In this document: positions 1 through 47,787 of the stretch, piece by piece | Position numbering within the stretch: the first letter of the stretch is position 1 | Layout: every line of letters starts with the position of its first letter | Source: Thermoanaerobaculaceae bacterium | Lineage (GTDB): Bacteria > Acidobacteriota > Thermoanaerobaculia > Multivoradales > UBA5704 | Direction: 5' to 3' | Assembly: GCA_963785165.1 (NCBI GenBank) | Contig: CAWAUI010000007.1 | Coordinates: 1,304,725 to 1,368,724 of the forward strand | DNA length: 64,000 bases | Program-made: the position numbers and the translations under genes | The notes under the pieces: generated by a model | The model's database searches: none | The model's input: only the letters and a program-made list of their open reading frames with translations | What the model was told of the DNA's origin: nothing

Positions 1-603
1 CAGGGTGACGATGGTGAGCGGCGTGCCCGTGAGCGTGAGCCCCAGGTTGTTCGCGTCGAACACCCAGACGTCCGCCCGGCCCACACCGGGAGTGGTGAGC
101 TGGGGATCGTAGGGGACGTTCTGGCCGCGGTGGGCGGTGGTGACGAAGGCGCGGTTCTTCGCCGCTCCGCCGAAGACGACGTCGCGCGGCTCATCTCCCA
201 CCAGCAGGGTGCGCACCACGCGTCCGTTGTGCCCGCCCTGGGTCAGCTCGACGACGCTGACGCTGTCGGAGAGATGGTTGACGACCCAGACCTCGTCGTC
301 GCCACGCGCCGCGACGGCCACGGGCTCGAGGCCCACGGGGATGGAGACCTGGTGCTCCAGTCCGTCGTTCTTGACGCGGTAGACCTCGAGGCGGTTGTCC
401 GGCGTATTGGCGGCGAAGAGGAGCTTGCCGCTCGGCGACAGGGCCAGGGGGCGCACCTGGCCGCTCTCGAAGAGCGTGAAGCTCGCCGGGAGGGATTTGT
501 GGGCCGGCCGAAGCGCGGGGGCGGCGGCGGCAAGGGACGGGAAAAGGGCGGCCAGGCTGATCAACGGCACGATCGACCGGCGGGCAAGGGAAGGCAGGGC
601 CAT
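1..603 (-). CDS. Secreted beta-propeller repeat protein (YVTN/lactonase-like), N-terminal part; the gene runs off the left edge
   Basis: ATG at 603-601 (complement), 8 nt after GGAGG. My translation begins [29 protein letters not shown] (signal peptide), then [25 protein letters not shown] and [22 protein letters not shown] blade-like repeats. Open to nt 1, so absent from the ORF track. Confidence 0.6.
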
Positions 604-760
604 GGGAAACCTCCAACAGGCGTCGTATCCGCTGCCCCCTGAGCCCTCAGGGGAAAAGGAGATTCCCACCGGGAACCCAAGAGCAACGAATTGTCCAAAT
701 CCTTTAACGCCTGCAATGCTGAATTCCCCTCACGTGGGGTGGAGAGAATTTCGGCGTAGA

Positions 761-924
761 CGCGAGCCCGGCAGGGCGTCCTACCCCTAGCCCAGGGTGC
801 AACCCTGGGAAAACGGATGCGGCCCCATCCTCCACGATCCGCGTAGGGCGTGCCGCGCGGCGCGTCCCTCGACCACCCAGGGTTGCACCCTGGGCTACGA
901 GTAGGACGCCCTACCGGGCTCACG
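761..924. repeat. Snap-back inverted-repeat (REP/MITE-like) element: 49-nt arms 761-809 and 876-924, 66-nt spacer
   Basis: Hand alignment shows the right arm is the reverse complement of the left at 45/49 positions. Each arm holds its own hairpin CCCAGGG-N5-CCCTGGG. No ORF with transposase features. Confidence 0.75.
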
Positions 925-932
925 GTTAGTAA

Positions 933-2396
933 TTAGGGGACCGTCTCCCCATACACCGCCGTCCGGGGATAGAACGAGAACCAGCCGAACCAGTACGCGA
1001 GGTGGCCGGGGAGGCGCGGCAGGGATTTACCGTCCGGCGTGGTGAGGGCTTCCTCGGTGACGCGCCAGGGCTTGCCGTCCTGGTCGTTCAAGAACACCAG
1101 GCCGAGGAAGGAGCGCTCCGAGCGGGCGAAGACGCGGTCTCCCCGGTCGTAGGCGCGGACGGTGCGGTCCTGCCCCTCGGCGCCCGGCTCGTAGACGAGG
1201 AGGACGGGCTTGCCGCCGAGCTCGTCGTTCACGATCCCCTCTTTCTTCAGGCGGTCCAGGGGATACGCCTTGGGCGCGCCGTTCACGATCAGGGCGTAGA
1301 TCCAGGACTTCTCCGGCAGGATCTGGCTCCGCCGGTGGACCGGGAACATGGTCTCCGCGCCGGCGAAGTAGGAGCCGTAGGGCTTGCCGGGGGTGTAGTC
1401 GCGCTGGTAGCCCGTTTCCAGGGCGAGCACCCGGGTCTCCGGATGGCCCCGCAGCCAGCTCCCCCACGAGGTGACGACCACGGGCAGGCGCTCCAGCTTG
1501 ATGCCGGAGCCCACCAACGGCCCGTTGACCGGCTCGCCCGTGAGCTGGTTCCACAGGGTGCCCGTCTGCCGGTCGTACATGAGCTTGTTGCTCTCGTAGA
1601 GGAAGCCCGAGGAGCCGAAGGTGAGGGTGCCCTTGGGGGTGTCCGTCCGGTAGAGCACGCCCGCGCCGCAGAGGGTGCAGTAGGCGAGCGAGACGGGGAC
1701 CTTGCCCACCACGTCGTTCGCCATCTCGTGCCAGTCGAGAATGCGCAGGGGGTAGGCCCGCGTGTCGCCCGCGATCTCGACGCCGAAGACCGGCTCTTCC
1801 GGCGTCAGGTAGGCCGCCGCCTTGCCCCGGATGAGCGGTGAATTCACCAGGGCCGGGATGCCGTCCACCTTCACGCCGCCCCACTGGATCAGCTCGACCG
1901 GAAGGGTGGTGGGCCGGCTGCTGTCGAGGAACCGTTTCATGGCGGGATCGACCATGCGGGCGTAGAGGTCTCCCTTCCAGGTGGCGAAGCCGGGGACGGT
2001 CGTCACCTCCGGATGATCGGCGAGCCACTTGTACCAGCTTGCCCATTCGCCCCCGAGTTTCTTGGTCCCGGCCGCCTCGCCCGCGATGGCGGCCATGGCC
2101 GCGCCAATCTCCGCGCGGGGGGCCACGGACGGGAAACGCAGCAGCTCGAACAGGGGCGCCAGGTAGCGCCGGTCCTTCTTGGCCGTAGCCCGGCGCAGAA
2201 CCTCGCGGGTGGACCCCGCGTCGAAGCGCAGAAGGGTCTCGAGGTCCGCCTCAACGATTGCCGGGTCAACGGAAACGTCGGCCACGGCGGTGCCGGCCGG
2301 AGCCGGGGCCGGTATCCGGGAAATCGCGGATTCGGAGCCGGCGCAGCTCGCGGTGGCGAGAAGGAGCACGAACAAAGGGAAGGACGGGGTGCGCAT
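933..2396 (-). CDS. DUF3179-family lipoprotein
   Basis: ORF 933..2462. Likely start is the ATG at 2396 (MRTPSFPLFVLLLATASC, lipobox-like ASC). DUF3179 signature seen: VDGIPAL...AYPLRILDWHEMANDVVGKVPVSLAYCTLCGAGVLY...FGSSGFLYESNKLMYDRQTGTLWNQ. Confidence 0.75.
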   Translation of the reverse strand: MRTPSFPLFVLLLATASCAGSESAISRIPAPAPAGTAVADVSVDPAIVEADLETLLRFDAGSTREVLRRATAKKDRRYLAPLFELLRFPSVAPRAEIGAAMAAIAGEAAGTKKLGGEWASWYKWLADHPEVTTVPGFATWKGDLYARMVDPAMKRFLDSSRPTTLPVELIQWGGVKVDGIPALVNSPLIRGKAAAYLTPEEPVFGVEIAGDTRAYPLRILDWHEMANDVVGKVPVSLAYCTLCGAGVLYRTDTPKGTLTFGSSGFLYESNKLMYDRQTGTLWNQLTGEPVNGPLVGSGIKLERLPVVVTSWGSWLRGHPETRVLALETGYQRDYTPGKPYGSYFAGAETMFPVHRRSQILPEKSWIYALIVNGAPKAYPLDRLKKEGIVNDELGGKPVLLVYEPGAEGQDRTVRAYDRGDRVFARSERSFLGLVFLNDQDGKPWRVTEEALTTPDGKSLPRLPGHLAYWFGWFSFYPRTAVYGETVP

Positions 2397-2477
2397 GCTC
2401 CCCATCCTAATCGATGTCCCGGCCGCCGCTCCCGGAGCTTCTCCCCCTCCTGATCGCGGCACCCGGAAAGCCTCGTG

Positions 2478-2885
2478 CGCCTCCTCCCTCTCTTACCGCG
2501 CTTCCTCCCCTTCTTCCCGCGGCCTTCCCCTCTCTTCCCGCGCCATCCGGTAAGAAGGGGGAGCGAGTCGGCAAGAAGGGGGAGCGGCTCGGCAAGAGAG
2601 GGGAGCGACTCGGCAAGAGAGGGGAGCGACTCGGCAAGAGAGGGGAGCGACTCGGCAAGAGAGGGGAGCGGCTCGGCAAGAAGGGGCGGTGGCGCGGCAG
2701 CGGGGGGAGCGCACGCGGCAAGAGGGGGCGGACCCGTACCCGCCTGGGGGGCTGTCGCGGCAAGGGAGGGAGCCGGCTCGGCAAGAAGGGGGAGCGCCGC
2801 GGCAAGAAGGGGGAACACCGCGGGACGAGCGGTAAGTGACGCACCAAGAGGGGGCGGTGCCCCGGCAAGAGGGGGGAATGCCAGG
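2478..2885. repeat. 21-bp phased tandem array (unit CGGCAAGAGAGGGGAGCGACT): 3 inverted units followed by about 14 direct units
   Basis: Forward units start at 2548, 2569, 2590, 2611, 2632, 2653, 2674, 2695, 2716, 2758, 2779 and 2800 (exact 21-nt phase), then at 2830 and 2863. Reverse-complement units end at 2498, 2519 and 2540. Dyad centre is near 2544. Confidence 0.9.
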
Positions 2886-2922
2886 GGAACGGAGGGGAGA
2901 GGCGCGGAACCGTTCCCGCGCC

Positions 2923-3174
2923 TCACTGAATCTCGGAATCCGGCGGCCCCACGTCGTACCCGCCGGCCCGTTCGACGCCCGCGACCCCCGCGATCCGGGA
3001 GAGGCCGTCCATCTTCCCGGGTTGGATCGAGCCCGTGATGGTTCCGATCTGGTCGAGCGCCTGATCGACGCGCAGTCCCGCGGCCTGGCAGCGCTCCACG
3101 ACCTGGCGCATCTTCGGAAGGTGCTCGTCGTCCACCGAGATGAGCACCGCGATCCTGTCGTCCGTCTTCGCCAT
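2923..3174 (-). CDS. Small conserved hypothetical protein (83 aa) downstream of the S8 peptidase
   Basis: ORF 2923..3195, probable ATG at 3174 (MAKTDDRIAVLISVDDEHLPKMRQVVERCQAAGLRVDQ...). Same strand, 48 nt after the peptidase stop. Non-shadow amino-acid composition. Confidence 0.45.
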   Translation of the reverse strand: MAKTDDRIAVLISVDDEHLPKMRQVVERCQAAGLRVDQALDQIGTITGSIQPGKMDGLSRIAGVAGVERAGGYDVGPPDSEIQ

Positions 3175-3222
3175 GGGGGCACCTCTGCCGTCCACTATAC
3201 CGCCCCGTTGGAGAGGAGGGTC

Positions 3223-4612
3223 CTAGGGCGCCTGCACGAGGCCGGCTCCCACGTCCGAGGACGACGCGCCCAGGCGCCGGGCCAAGGCCGCCACGATCTG
3301 GATCAGGGCGGCGCCCGTGACCTGCCGGGCCTCGGCCCACAGCGCGGCGATGCCCGCCACGTGCGGGGTGGCCATGCTGGTGCCGGAGAGGATGCGGTTG
3401 CGCGACGGCATGGGGGCGCAGGAGAAGACGTCCACGCCCGGGCCCGCGATGTCCACCTGGCCGCCGGCCACGCTCGTTCCCCGGTTGGAGAAGTTGGCGA
3501 TCTGGAAGCGGGAGTCCACCGCCGCCACGGCCAGAAACGACACGCAGTTGGCCGGCCGGCTGACGGGCCGGATCAGGTTCTGGTTGCGCTTGCTGTCGTT
3601 GCCCGCCGCCGAGATGAAGACGGTGCCGGCCGCCAGCGCCCGCCGGGCCACCTGCTCGTAGGCCACCGAGGCCGGTGCCTGCGAGCCGAGCGACATGGAG
3701 ATGACGTGGCACCGGTTCAGGATCGCCCAGTTGATGCCGGCCAGGATGCTGCCGTCCGGCCCCCGGCCACTGTTGGCCAGCACCTTGCCGGCGAAGATCT
3801 GCGCCTCGCCGGCCACGCCGTAGCGCCGCCCCTGGACCGGGCGCGCCGGTCCGCACGACGTGCCGATGCAGTGCGTGCCGTGGCCGTGGCCGTCCTGCAC
3901 GGCCTCGCCGGGTATGAACGACTGGCTCGTCAGCGACCGGCCCGCGAAGTCCGGATGCTGAAGGTCCATGCCCGTGTCGAGCACCGCCACCCGGATCCCC
4001 CGGCCGGTGTACCGGGAGGTCAGGGCCTTGGTGGCCGCGATCCCCCAGGTCGCCGTGTCGGTGTCTGCCAATGCGGCTGCCGCGGCGGCCTGCTCCTCCT
4101 CCGAGCCGCCCGAGCCGCCGCCGGCCGAGAGCTGCTCGTAGAGATGGGCCACGGCATCCCGGTACCCCCGCAGGTACGCCAGCGGCACCTCCTGGATGGC
4201 CTCCATGATCCGCTCGGGCTCGATGGCGAGGATGGAGCTTCTCGTCATCCTCGGCCGCGGCGGCGGACAGGGCGTTCAACTGGTCCGGCGGCGTGCTCAC
4301 CACGGCGATGCCGAGCTGGTCGAAGTAGACCGCCCCGGCATCCTGCAGCTGCCCGAAGTCCATGGCCCCGCCGCCAAAGTCCGCCGAGCTCGCGACCATC
4401 CCGATCCCGGCCGACTTGCTCATCAGGTTGACGGCCTTCTGGTCCGTCCCCTCGCGGAAGGTGACGATGTACCGCCCCGTCAGATCCCCCGCAGGCTCCG
4501 CGGCCGGCGTGGCCATGGGAGGCGGCGGAACCGCAGGATCGCCCGCCGGAGCGAACGGCGGTGTGGATAGAGAACGGGACCGCGGGGTCTTGGGATCGGA
4601 TTTCTTGGCCAT
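3223..4612 (-). pseudogene. Secreted subtilisin-like S8 serine peptidase with N-terminal I9-like propeptide; one frameshift near 4240 as assembled
   Basis: Catalytic motifs VAVLDTGMD, HGHGTHCIGT and SGTSMATPHVAG lie in ORF 3223..4248. The N-terminus (MAKKSDPK...YIVTFREGTDQKAV...AAAEDDE) is in another frame (part of ORF 2003..4648), with ATG at 4612 after GGGAGG. The frames rejoin if one base of the TT at 4239-4240 is removed. Confidence 0.85.
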
Positions 4613-4873
4613 GGCGCCTACCTCCCTCAGATCTCCTGAATGATTCAAGAGACACTTCCAAGCTTACAGGCGGCAGGGAGGGCGCGGACGTTACGCCAAG
4701 CCGGACGGCGTCTTCACCTTCGTCTCCGCCCGCGAAATCCGGACGCATGACGCCCAACCAGCGCCGTGACAACCTCATGGCGGCCGGTTGACGGCCCTAT
4801 CGAGGCTGCGCTATGTAGAGGAATCGATGCAGTCGTCCCCTCCCTTCAACTTTCCGCACCTGGGAGAAGAGCC

Positions 4874-7800
4874 ATGCTCAGAGCTTTGAGGTTTGCCGCG
4901 CTGGCGGCGGCCGTCCTCCTGCCCGTTCCCGCCCACGCGGCGGCGCCGGTCGATCCCGACCTGTTCGCCGGCCTCAAGGCGCGGCTCGATCGGCCCGGCC
5001 ACCATGAGCGGCCGCGTCGCCGCCGTGGAGGCCGCCGAGTCCGATCCCGACATTCTCTATGTCGGCGCCGCGACCGGCGGCGTCTGGAAGTCGGTCAACG
5101 GCGGGCTCACCTGGAAACCGCTGTTCGACGACCAGCCGGTGGCCGCGATCGGCGCGCTGGCCCTCGATCCCTCGAATCCGAACGTGGTCTGGGTGGGCAC
5201 CGGCGAAGGCAACCCGCGCAACAGCGTGTCGGTCGGCAACGGCGTCTACCGCACGCTCGACGGCGGCCGGACCTGGACGCACCTGGGCCTCGAGAAGACG
5301 GAGCGCATCCACCGCATCGTGCTCCATCCCTCCAATCCCGAACATCGCCTGGGTGGCGGCCCTCGGGCAGCTCTGGGGCGAGAACCCCGAGCGCGGCGTC
5401 TTCAAGACGGTCGACGGCGGCAAGACCTGGCGCAAGGTGCTCTACGTCGACGAGCGGACCGGCGCGGCGGACCTGGTGATCGACCCGACCAATCCCAACA
5501 AGCTGTTCGCGGCGATGTGGGACTACCGCCGCTGGCCCTGGTTCTTCCGCTCGGGCGGCCCGGGCTCCGGCCTCTACGTCACCTACGACGGCGGCGAGAC
5601 CTGGAAGCGCCGCACGCGAGGACGACGGCCTGCCCAAGGGGGACCTCGGCCGCATCGGCGCTCGCGATCTCGCGCTCCAACCCGAGCATCGTCTACGCCC
5701 TGGTCGAGGCCGAGAAGAGCGCCCTGCTGCGCTCGGACGACGGCGGCCGCACCTGGAAGACGGTCAACGACGGACCAGCGGACGCGCGGAGCGGCCCTTC
5801 TACTACGCGGACATCCGGGTCGACCCGGCGTGGCCGAACCGGGTCTACAACCTGACCGCGCCGGCTCGACGGTGTCGAACGACGGCGGCAAGACGCTTCG
5901 ACGTGCTCGGCGGTCGCGCGAGGTCCACGGCGACTACCACGCCCTGTGGATCAATCCCGACGACCCGCGACCACCTGGTGACGGGCAACGACGGCGGCGT
6001 CGCCGTCAGCCACGACCGCGGGCGAGACCTGGCAGTTCGTGGGCAACCTGCCGCTCGGCCAGTTCTACCACGTGCGCCGTCGACATGGAGCGCCCCTACA
6101 ACGTCTACGGCGGCCTCCAGGACAACGGCTCCTGGCGGGGGCCGAGCGCCATCTGGGAGACGGCGGGCATCCGCAACCACCACTGGGACCCGGTGGGCGG
6201 CGGCGACGGCTTCGACACCCGGCCCGACCCGCGAGGACTCCAGGGCGGGCTACTCCATGTCCCAGGGCGGCTACCTGGTGCGCTGGAACCTGCGCACGCG
6301 GCGAGATGCAAGCCGATCAAGCCGCCGGAGCCGCTGCCGGGGAGCGGCCTCGAGCCGCTGCGCTTCAACTGGAACGCCGGCATCGCCCTCGACCCCTTCG
6401 AGCCGGGGACGATCTACTACGGCAGCCAGTTCGTCCACAAGTCGACCGACCGCGGCGAGACCTGGACGGTGATCAGCCCCGACCTGACCACCAACAACCC
6501 GGAGTGGCAGCAGCAGGCGAAGAGCGGCGGCCTGACCCCGGACGTGACCGGCGCCGAGAACTTCACCACGATCGTCGCCATCGCCCCCAGCCCGCTCCAG
6601 CAGGGGCGTGATCTGGGTCGGCACCGACGACGGCCGCCTGCACGTCACCCGCGACGGCGGCAAGAGCTGGACGAGCGTCGAGAAGAACGTCTTGGGCGCG
6701 CGGGGCGTGCCGGCCAACACCTGGATCCCCCACATCCTCCCCTCGCGCTACGACGCGGGCACCGCCTTCGTGGTGTTCGACAACCACCGGCGCTCCGACT
6801 TGACGCCCTACGTCTGCCGCACCGACGACTGCGGCAAGACCTGGAAGAGCCTGGCCACCACGGACCTCCGCGGCTACGCCCTGGCGATCGAGCAGGATCC
6901 GGTGGACCGGGACCTGCTCTTCCTCGGCACCGAATTCGGCCTCTGGGTCTCGCTCGACGGCGGCGCCCGCTGGATGCCCTGGCGCCACGGCGTGCCCACC
7001 ACCTCGGTGATGGACCTGGTGATCCACCCGCGCGAGCACGACCTGGTGATCGCCACCCACGGCCGGGCCGTCTACGTGCTCGACGACATCACCCCCTTGC
7101 GGGGGATCTCGGCGGAGACGCTCGCCAAGCCGGTGGTGCTCTACCCGAGCCAGCCCGCCACGCTGATCCGTGGAGCGCGGGGCGGCGGCGTGCGGGGTGG
7201 CGGAGCCGGCGAGTTCCAGGGCGAGAACCGGCCCAACGGCGCGCTCCTCACCTTCTCGCTCAACGCGCCGGGTCTGCCGCTCCCCAACGCGGAGAAGGAG
7301 CGGGCGCGCAAGGAGGCCGAGCGGGCGTCGGCGCGGGAGAAGGCGCAGCAGGGCTCGACCGCGCGCAAGGAGGATCCGCCGGCCTCGCCGGAGGCCCCTG
7401 GCGCGGCAGAACCCGCGGCGGACGCCGGCAAAGACGACAAGGGGCCGCAGGCCGAGATCCGCATCGCCGACGCCTCCGGCAAAGTGATCCGCACCTTCAA
7501 GCGGCCGGTCACCCTGGGGGTCAACCGGGTGGTCTGGAACCTGACCCGCGATCCCTTCCGCACGCCGCCCACGGACAACCGCGGCCGGCCGCGCCAGGAC
7601 GACAACGGCCCCACCGTGGTGCCGGGCACCTACGGCGTCACCGTGAAGTACGGTGGCCAGGAGGCCCAGGGGACGGTGCAGGTGGCGGCCGATCCCGGCG
7701 TCGAGAACACCGAGGCCGACTGGCAGGCCCGCGAAGCCGCCGTGCAGCGGGTGGGAGAGCTCCAGAACGCGGTGACGGACGCCATCGCCCGCATCGGCTC

Positions 7801-8248
7801 GACCCGCAAGGACGTCGAAGCCGTGCTCGCCAAGCTCGACGCCCAGGACAAGGAGAGGATGCAGGCCAATCCGGACGCCAAGCCGGGTGACGGACCGAAT
7901 TCCCCCAGATTCCTCCCAAATAAGACCCTGCGCCAGTCCGCCCGCGATCTCCAGAAGAAGCTGTCGGACATCGAGCGGCGCCTCTACGTGCCCCCCACCA
8001 CCAAGGGGATCGTGGTGGACGAAACGGCCTCCGCCCACGTGGAGGCGGCGGGCCGGGCCCTCGGGTCCACCTGGAGCCCGCCGAGCGCGACCACCAAGAG
8101 CTACATGGAGCTGGCCGAGAGGTCCGTCCGCGAAGTCCTCGCCGACTTCAACAAGCTCTACGCCGAAGACGTCGCCGCCTTCGGGCGGAAGGCGGCGGAA
8201 GCCAAGGTGGGGCTGCTGGGCGAGGTGGGGGCGATCGAGGTGCGGTAG
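4874..8248 (+). pseudogene. Sortilin/VPS10-like BNR (Asp-box) repeat protein, about 1120 aa; about 12 frame changes between 4980 and 6610, 3' half intact
   Basis: ATG at 4874 after GGGAGAAG. Signal peptide MLRALRFAALAAAVLLPVPAHA. Repeated DGGxTW boxes (VNGGLTW, LDGGRTW, VDGGKTW, YDGGETW, DDGGRTW, TDRGETW, RDGGKSW, LDGGARW) are spread over ORFs 4766.., 4893.., 5059.., 5903.., 6039.. and 6608..8248. Confidence 0.8.
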
Positions 8249-44616: not shown

Positions 44617-44980
44617 CATCCGTTGAGCCCAGCGTATCCATAAGCTGGCTCGTCCCAAGGATAGACCCGCCGTTTTATGGATAGGCAGCCCGTCGTATCG
44701 ATAGGCAGCCTGTTGTATCCATGAATTGGTCCGCCGTATCGATAGCTGAGCCGGCGTAAGGATAGGCAGCCCGTTGTATCCATAGACAGGCCAGCGATCC
44801 ATAAGTTGGCTCGCCGTATGGATGGCTGGGCCGTCCTATCGATGGCTGGCCCGTTTTATCCATACGTTGACCCGTCGTATCCATAGCTGAACCGTCGTAT
44901 GGATAGCTGGCTCAGCGATCCATAAGTTGGCCCGTCTTATCGATAGGACGGGCTGTCGTATCCATGAGTTGGGCTGTTTT
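44617..44980. repeat. Array of 18 phased ~20-bp direct repeats (consensus about ATCCATAGCTGGCCCGTCGT), iteron/centromere-like
   Basis: Core AT[CG][CG]AT (or AAGGAT) starts at 44618, 636, 657, 677, 697, 717, 738, 758, 778, 797, 818, 838, 858, 879, 899, 918, 939 and 960. Spacing is 18-21 nt. Confidence 0.9.
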
Positions 44981-47421: not shown

Positions 47422-47536
47422 CGCCGCGATGTTCACCAAGATATGTGCCCTGCTCGGCTCTCTGGGTGCGCTTCGCGCAGTCCTTCTCGCGTCAACGGGC
47501 CTTCCTTCTGTGACTCCAGTCTGTCCTGATGCGGGT

Positions 47537-47660
47537 CCTCCCTCACTTGCCGCGGCAGCTCCCCCTCTTGAGCTGCTATTTCCCCTTCTTATCGCGTCTC
47601 TGGATAAGAGAGGGGAGGTCTATCCCAAGAAGGGGCAGACCCGCGGTAAGAGAGGGGAGC
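47537..47660. repeat. Second dyad array of the 21-bp GGGGAGC-type unit (3 inverted plus 3 direct units), 128 nt upstream of the KAP NTPase ATG
   Basis: Inverted units end at 47552, 47573 and 47594 (21-nt phase). Direct units start near 47602, 47624 and 47644 (GATAAGAGAGGGGAGG, CCCAAGAAGGGGCAG, CGGTAAGAGAGGGGAGC). Confidence 0.8.
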
Positions 47661-47787
47661 ACCCGGGGGCCGTCACAAAGAGGTGGGCTGTGTCGCCTAA
47701 TCCATAAGGCCGGTCCCCTGTATGCCCGTGAAGGGTGTCTTCAAGGGCGGGGCCTGTGGCCGGATCGCTTCCAGAGGAGGTTGAAGA

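Follow-up and report, generated by a model that had tools for sequence, protein, structure and literature searches.

The window, a stretch of 64,000 nucleotides, belongs to a 7.5-Mb Thermoanaerobaculia MAG of a soil acidobacterium, referred to here as G000. Near one end of the window, an array of short tandem units fills the gap between two minus-strand genes, a 90-aa ORF and a DUF3179 gene. The 90-aa ORF (2923-3195) has no Pfam match; by eye, the C-terminal half of its product appears subtilase propeptide-like, which would fit the adjoining S8 peptidase gene. The features of the locus are given below, together with a second family copy that lies elsewhere in the window.

933-2396, minus strand: DUF3179 gene, the downstream neighbour, with its start about 50-70 nt past the array
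2443-2540, no strand: C-rich arm, with reverse cores at 2485-2498, 2506-2519 and 2527-2540, a 7-nt linker after each, and degenerate units at 2443 and 2464 (21-nt register print; PWM map '(.<<<>>>>...')
2541-2547, no strand: 7-nt centre linker CGCCATC, at which the core orientation flips; the same -/+ geometry is found at 42 of 43 flips genome-wide
2548-2904, no strand: G-rich arm of 17 in-phase units, each with core CGGNAAGRRRGGGG and a 7-nt linker; variant units at 2737 (TACC type), 2821 and 2842
2590-2673, no strand: recent whole-unit expansion, comprising three identical 21-mers and one with a single change
2897-2923, minus strand: palindromic end unit CGGAACCGTTCCCG, with an 11-bp hairpin GAGGCGCGGGAAC/GTTCCGCGCCTC (RNA fold)
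2923-3195, minus strand: 90-aa ORF, the upstream neighbour, downstream of the S8 peptidase gene at 3223-4248
47518-47664, no strand: second, small family copy of about 3 + 3 units, with centre CGTCTCT

From 2443 to 2925, the array keeps a strict 21-nt lattice made of three to five C-rich units, a 7-nt centre, 17 G-rich units and a small hairpin unit that closes it. If the sequence is broken into 21-nt rows with 2548 as the anchor, CGGNAAG opens nearly every row from 2548 to 2863. TRF reports a period of 21 at 2477-2544, 2558-2812 and 2548-2882, and the consensus 21-mer, with up to three mismatches allowed, is matched 5 times compared to 0 times in 100 shuffles. The strict phasing from 2548 that had been described in an earlier, sequence-only reading of this DNA is confirmed by the row print, the TRF period and the shuffles. 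Its dyad at about 2544 is equally borne out by the reverse cores, which end at 2498, 2519 and 2540, and by the centre CGCCATC at 2541-2547. Two of its details are to be corrected: the “double-length unit” at 2716-2757 consists of two in-phase units, the second of TACC type, and the junction between GGACCCG and TACC recurs in other copies; and a unit at 2830 would be out of phase, the units that keep the lattice being those at 2821 and 2842.

To the left, the lattice continues through degenerate units in phase at 2464 and 2443, and on the right the in-phase units at 2821, 2842, 2863 and 2884 are followed by the palindromic end unit at 2905-2925. In the RNA fold, part of this end unit forms a perfect 11-bp hairpin that immediately follows the 90-aa gene's stop codon. 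Ends of a like kind, AGAGGCG followed by CGGGAGCGTTCCCG, are found in seven other copies, and the centre seen most often genome-wide is CGCCATY or its complement. Only three units in the window array (2590-2652) are identical. A scan of the window from 2300 to 3300 for promoter and terminator consensus sequences found nothing.

The sequence-only reading had named a conserved protein, encoded across this region at homologous loci in relatives, as one observation that would refute it. The syntenic DUF3179 loci in relatives lack the region, and no array was found upstream of the DUF3179 orthologues at the syntenic loci in L015, L017, L018, G005 and G045. The orthologue in G005 (L122, G005:C11:1821762-1823176) gives a two-piece match with one in-frame TAG, and may be broken or mis-assembled.

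A dispersed intergenic family and its unit grammar

A degenerate core pattern has 102 matches in G000, compared to 18 for the reversed control, and a PWM scan of the genome gives 36 clusters of at least three units, of 130-470 bp each, among which the window array is the largest. The layout of unit and dyad, for which a genome-wide search had been proposed, thus does recur, and the window array is one of about 36 copies rather than a locus-specific device. The family unit consists of a 14-nt core, CGGNAAGRRRGGGG, and a 7-nt variable linker. In nearly all copies the C-rich (reverse) arm comes before the G-rich (forward) arm (“<<<>>>”). The cores point away from the 7-bp centre, and a copy therefore reads as a C-rich and then a G-rich arm on either strand, which makes it a long imperfect palindrome.

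The phasing of the units is strict throughout the genome. Steps between neighbours of the same orientation are exact multiples of 21 in 207 of 216 cases, so that only 9 are off phase despite a unit divergence of about 25%. Reverse-to-forward flips take place at offset 7 (42 of 43), and forward-to-reverse flips at offset 14 (17 of 18). This means that the lattice slots are common to both core orientations and that the lattice survives the flips. Within the unit, roughly one helical turn separates the conserved blocks CGG, AAGA and GGGGAG, and positions 17-21 are free. That all cores face the same side of the helix, as the sequence-only reading had argued from a 21-bp period, is upheld by a lattice that is kept genome-wide and by conserved core blocks spaced about 10.5 bp. 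The only palindromic parts of the family are the centre (14 + 7 + 14 nt) and rare palindromic hybrid units, CGGGAnCGnTCCCG; the G-type and C-type units are not palindromic. These hybrid units occupy some slots, are about 14-fold enriched at arrays and are often terminal.

All of the approximately 36 copies are intergenic, and they nearly fill their gaps, mostly just behind a gene. Gene context was taken from a crude GC3-based gene caller, with which no ORF bearing a coding GC3 signature was found to overlap any copy in G000. Among the copies for which a gene was called on both sides, about 9 have convergent neighbours, about 10 tandem ones and at most 4 divergent ones, and only one of these last has both genes close. 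As had been suspected, the ORFs across the window array are driven by the repeat: the unit is T-poor and forms no stop codon in any frame, and all six frames are open because it contains no stop-forming triplets. The three array ORFs have no Pfam match, and a coding GC3 signature is likewise missing. The array is also not a CRISPR, in agreement with the earlier reading, given a variable part of 7 nt, orientation flips and no CRISPR Rfam match on the array; the Rfam scan of window positions 1-8000 gave only sub-threshold miRNA-like matches that are caused by the hairpin.

Distribution, insertion sites and growth of copies

The survey comprised 92 genomes of the bacterial family, and a wider search used one genome per species for 185,579 species. 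Among the 92 genomes, adjacent core pairs at 21-nt spacing number 36 in G000 and 102 in G005 (MFD03066.bin.1.255), which holds at least 30 copies. Apart from G016, which is described below, all others, three closed genomes of the genus among them, lack such pairs or show a few weak matches near the level of the control. In the 185,579 species genomes, the exact double core occurs, besides G000, only in G005 and in one unrelated archaeal contig. G000 and G005 have a 12-bp part of the core, AAGAGAGGGGA, in common, while their linkers differ. As an interspersed repeat the family is non-coding and restricted to one lineage, and the window array is its largest copy.

A single array is found in G016 (L099:1275-1687, G016:C5), where 19.7 units of 21 bp with 92% identity, GCTCTGGCCCAAGCGAGGGGA, are all direct. 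It has the core AAG(A/C)GAGGGGA in common with the family.

Orthologous sites were compared at six single loci. In sister genomes about as close as G005 (flanking genes approximately 85% identical at the nucleotide level), sites are found empty, and these comparisons are too diverged for TSDs to be read. Three empty sites are the following.

Copy C7:1061178: empty in G041, convergent stop codons about 12 bp apart
Copy C4:4647008: empty in G056, convergent stop codons 4 bp apart
Copy C7:103177: empty in G045, convergent stop codons 2 bp apart

Insertions seem to favour the ends of convergent genes, and several copies lie at synteny breakpoints. At two loci, C4:4760689/L143 and C4:4286933/L144, G000 and G005 each have an array directly behind an orthologous gene that they share, and the arrays agree in arm order and have recognisably similar outer units. 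The presence of both shared and private sites indicates that the family predates the split of G000 and G005 and has gained sites since.

Other repeats and inserts were observed at the same junctions. At the junction of the C7:1061178 copy, G056 (L133, C5:10577-11280) and G045 (L132, C16:133153-133466) carry an insert that resembles a two-gene cassette, and G015 and G005 have other palindromic repeats at such junctions. A GTAG-tagged REP hairpin, GGCGTAGCGCC...GGGACCGCCGGCATCCCTGCCGGCC, lies at L124:1222-1270 (G000:C7:1061521-1061569) and at G000:C7:103562-103600, and sometimes abuts an array. Dozens of near-identical matches to it in G005, G056, G045 and G041 indicate that this REP is genus-wide, unlike the lattice family.

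In G005, copies have a common step pattern of 21, 42, 26, 20, 21, 21, 42, 20 and 37, which includes a 1-nt phase slip, and three loci have a 470-bp element in common, degenerate outer units included. The common step pattern and the 470-bp element imply that the G005 copies derive from a master element. In G000, most copies are 70-75% alike, which is no more than any two units, so in-place growth from small seeds could account for much of the family. The centres in G000 have a CGGGAAG-type 5′ arm and a CGGCAAG-type 3′ arm, which gives six copies an identical C·C mismatch, and a TCCC-type unit fills the second slot in many copies. Runs of identical units (three in the window array, eight at C4:4408152 and five at C4:4760689) show recent growth by whole units.

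No leader, tail or TIR was found in G000, where BLAST homology between copies ends at the array edge. The 470-bp element of G005 has ends that are similar but direct rather than inverted, and no TIR. TIRs, TSDs and a partner transposase were looked for and not found, and alignments of the G000 ends show no common termini. A comparison of the flanking ORFs of at least 70 aa and of small ORFs of 45-200 aa at 51 loci of G000 and G005 gave no recurrent neighbour gene; those that recur are only histidine kinases, ABC ATPases and sigma-54 activators, which are large paralogous families, and segmental duplicates.

An autonomous element was also considered and rejected: the sole pair of arrays that encloses genes is in fact one array, interrupted by an IS1-family insertion. 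This 3.5-kb element at G000:C4:4287080-4290605 (L107:1581-5106) has a 296-aa ORF with a DDE_Tnp_IS1 match, its own inverted repeats, GGTAGTGTCCTAGTTTGAATTC, and an 8-bp duplication, CTGCTGCC.

A separate “family B” was noted in G000, with nine copies of approximately 500-770 bp at 75-95% identity, partly 21-nt periodic, which are made of GCATCATT-type linkers and a few main-family units. They lie on G000:C4 at 1327727, 2572034, 1820927, 3227182, 2317552, 783150, 1561682, 295497 and 2283607.

Comparison with known elements

The closest known relatives of the lattice family are the BrickBuilt MITE and REP/BIME elements. BrickBuilt is found in Porphyromonas gingivalis in 19 intergenic copies, which are made of spacer-less imperfect units of about 23 nt (Klein et al. 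2015, PMC4596501). Its units are direct repeats only, and they are accompanied by leader and tail segments with small inverted-repeat ends (PMC4596501). Like BrickBuilt, the lattice family is intergenic, species-restricted and multi-copy, and consists of tandem units with conserved and variable parts, so that the length of a copy is set by its number of units. The dispersed intergenic body of both is formed by spacer-less tandem units of about 20-23 nt. The lattice family differs in that its units flip at a centre, in that G000 copies are without leader, tail or TIR, and in a far stricter phasing.

REP/BIME elements are extragenic palindromes tagged with GTAG or CGTC, with stem-loop units of 20-40 nt, and are associated with RAYTs (Di Nocera et al. 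2013, PMC3733652). They have been proposed to act in termination or mRNA stability, and CGTC REPs have no dedicated transposase (PMC3733652). The lattice family resembles them in being extragenic, often behind genes, multi-copy, patchy among related species, mixed in orientation and capable of large hairpins. In contrast to REP units, most of its units are not palindromic and, within each arm, follow one another head-to-tail in a fixed 21-bp phase. GTAG is absent from the lattice unit consensus, and CGTC is present in some linkers only.

Arrays of 17-22-bp sites at about two helical turns, both direct and inverted, are known from the 22-bp iterons of R6K, parC of R1 and parC of pSK41. Iteron arrays and type II/Ib centromere arrays occur once or a few times per replicon and adjoin a rep or par gene. 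Two-turn spacing and a conserved core with a variable remainder are features that the lattice family has in common with them, but it occupies about 36 chromosomal loci, for which no common neighbour gene was found. CRISPR arrays combine identical repeats with unique spacers of about 26-72 nt, usually beside cas genes.

The ends of Tn7 and Mu have TGT...ACA termini, few fixed sites and a 5-bp TSD, and the autonomous form carries a TnsB/MuA-type gene. In the lattice family there are 1-17 units per arm, and no autonomous form was found in G000. In common with MITEs, the family is small, non-coding, multi-copy and either present or absent at orthologous sites (36 copies, three empty sites); ends that match an autonomous transposase element were not found, and no arm pair encloses a gene of its own. 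The unusual feature of the lattice family is the combination of a strict two-turn lattice with in-place flips of orientation. To our knowledge, no described bacterial interspersed repeat (REP/BIME, MITEs, BOX or BrickBuilt) is a strict two-turn lattice with in-place core flips.

Proposed recognition of the lattice and competing explanations

The dyad raises the question of whether a hairpin, an RNA or the duplex itself is the constrained feature. Selection for a hairpin was considered and rejected: mirrored unit pairs agree at 12.3 of 21 positions and non-mirrored ones at 11.7 (p = 0.2), a central stem pairs over 11.6 of 14 positions whether its partner is its own arm or an arm from another copy, and in the window array 17 units face only 3. 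The fold is moderately better than that of shuffles for RNA (z = -3.3), while the DNA centre gives z = -0.9. No base-pair covariation and no register-specific pairing was found across copies. The long cruciform that the sequence-only reading had considered, or a hairpin, could form only over the first 3 units of the window array, and covariation gives it no support. An intrastrand triplex (PMC4666352) was rejected as well, the core not being mirror-symmetric.

A lattice that is kept, a core that is conserved, linkers that drift and the lack of covariation together suggest that any selective reading is most likely of double-stranded DNA. Recognition of the duplex on one helix face is thus the most likely mode, as judged from the lattice and the core conservation, and a protein, either a host factor or the mobilising enzyme, may contact that face every two turns. 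Binding of a protein to the array is plausible. A search for a candidate binding protein found none, and a tandem-HTH protein as the reader of the array was dropped when the repeat-protein scan returned a TPR-like protein instead.

We consider it probable, with moderate confidence, that the family is a selfish interspersed repeat, specific to its lineage, whose arrays gain or lose whole units by slippage, and which is probably read as a duplex on one face and probably blocks transcription as a side effect. A mobilising enzyme would copy whole elements to new sites, and replication slippage would then lengthen or shorten the arrays by whole units. At the window locus, transcription from the 90-aa gene would first run through 357 nt whose RNA is rich in C and poor in G, and a hairpin of 3 units would follow near the DUF3179 start. 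The array transcript in this direction has, over its 357 nt, a C content of 0.51, a G content of 0.22 and about twice the YC dinucleotides of coding RNA, and the 3-unit hairpin follows the C-rich tract about 50 nt before the DUF3179 start. The window copy thus probably attenuates or insulates the junction of the 90-aa gene and DUF3179, as a side effect rather than a selected feature. In general, the arrays mark synteny breakpoints and gene junctions and may block transcription there. A 12-bp core in two species, with about 36 and at least 30 copies, shared and private sites and clean empty sites, makes the family a tractable test case.

Counting against this reading, the arrays are retained at orthologous sites and their lattice is strict, which could point to a function for the host instead of selfish DNA. 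The periods of other repeats bear on the same point. Among the non-coding tandem repeats that TRF finds in G000, period 21 accounts for 41 arrays outside the family and 21 inside it, a period of 20 bp for 16 arrays, 42 bp for 15 and any other period for at most 7. The non-family units are unrelated in sequence, and many carry short palindromes (TCCAGTGGA, ACCGGT, TATCGATA, GGGAACGCTCCC), whereas the main family has a non-palindromic core with arm-wise orientation. This quantisation at 21 bp points to a common constraint, which may be a protein footprint or a shared way in which arrays are made. In the window itself, separate 20/21-bp arrays with TATCGATA cores are found by TRF at 44670-44977.

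A host-selected docking lattice would provide such a constraint: a dedicated DNA-binding protein would polymerise on one helix face, the arrays would serve as a nucleoid-organising, insulating or partition-like platform, and mobility would be secondary. Much of the grammar would suit this explanation, including the phase kept across flips (9 of 216 steps off, at about 25% unit divergence), the CGG, AAGA and GGGGAG blocks about one turn apart with free linkers between them, the core common to G000 and G005 with differing linkers, the arrays kept at two orthologous sites, and the unrelated non-coding repeats that are likewise quantised at 21 bp. It is nevertheless unlikely, since equally related congeners, three closed genomes among them, are entirely without the family, and sister genomes have empty sites. 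Moreover, no cognate gene was found, the copies lie behind genes at no special chromosomal position, and all G005 copies tolerate a common 1-nt phase shift. The broader proposal that the family and the 40-odd unrelated 21-bp arrays are all docking lattices, for proteins that coat a helix face every two turns, is similarly doubtful. If true, chromosomes of Thermoanaerobaculia would be organised or insulated at a level not described before, and the flipping cores would set filament polarity.

Somewhat more doubtful again is an RNA-level element, in which copies would be selected as bidirectional terminators or mRNA 3′ stabilisers, and transcription from either direction would give a C-rich, G-poor tract for Rho loading and then a fold-back hairpin. 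The positions of the copies are consistent with this, as nearly all are behind at least one gene, about 9 are between convergent genes, and the whole gap is filled; so are the order of C-arm and then G-arm on both strands, the rut-like composition, the RNA fold (z = -3.3) and the perfect 11-bp hairpin after the stop codon. However, the pairing lacks covariation and specificity of register, unequal arms (3 versus 17 units) leave most units unpaired, and the side on which the long arm lies does not vary consistently with how the upstream gene is oriented. There is also no U-tract and no terminator-like match, and a hairpin does not need a strict 21-nt lattice.

A further explanation is very improbable: that the copies are abutted multi-site transposon ends, namely a MITE that descends from a Tn7/Mu-like element and carries the many subterminal sites of 21 bp to which its transposase would bind. 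In its favour, the sites form inverted arrays and are roughly of transposase-site size, and the copies are insertions relative to sister genomes. Yet there are no conserved TGT/ACA-type termini, no TSD was found, no gene lies between the arms, and the arms are unequal, with up to 17 sites each; the only nearby transposase is that of the IS1-family insertion, which has its own IRs and 8-bp TSD. The joined Tn7/Mu-like ends suggested in the sequence-only reading are accordingly not supported, as neither conserved termini nor a TSD nor a transposase partner was found and homology stops at the array edge.

Coding of a heptad-repeat protein by the array, be it GKRGERL or the product of another frame, can practically be dismissed: 21 nt do equal 7 codons and ORFs of 141-229 aa do cross the array, but all six frames are open, an ORF across the dyad would change from a P/L/S-rich to a G/K/R/E-rich product, copies occur in both orientations with none overlapped by a coding-GC3 ORF, the conserved positions form contiguous blocks without a 3-nt rhythm, and the region has no Pfam match and is missing in relatives. 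Such arrays spawn spurious repeat-protein ORFs in annotation.
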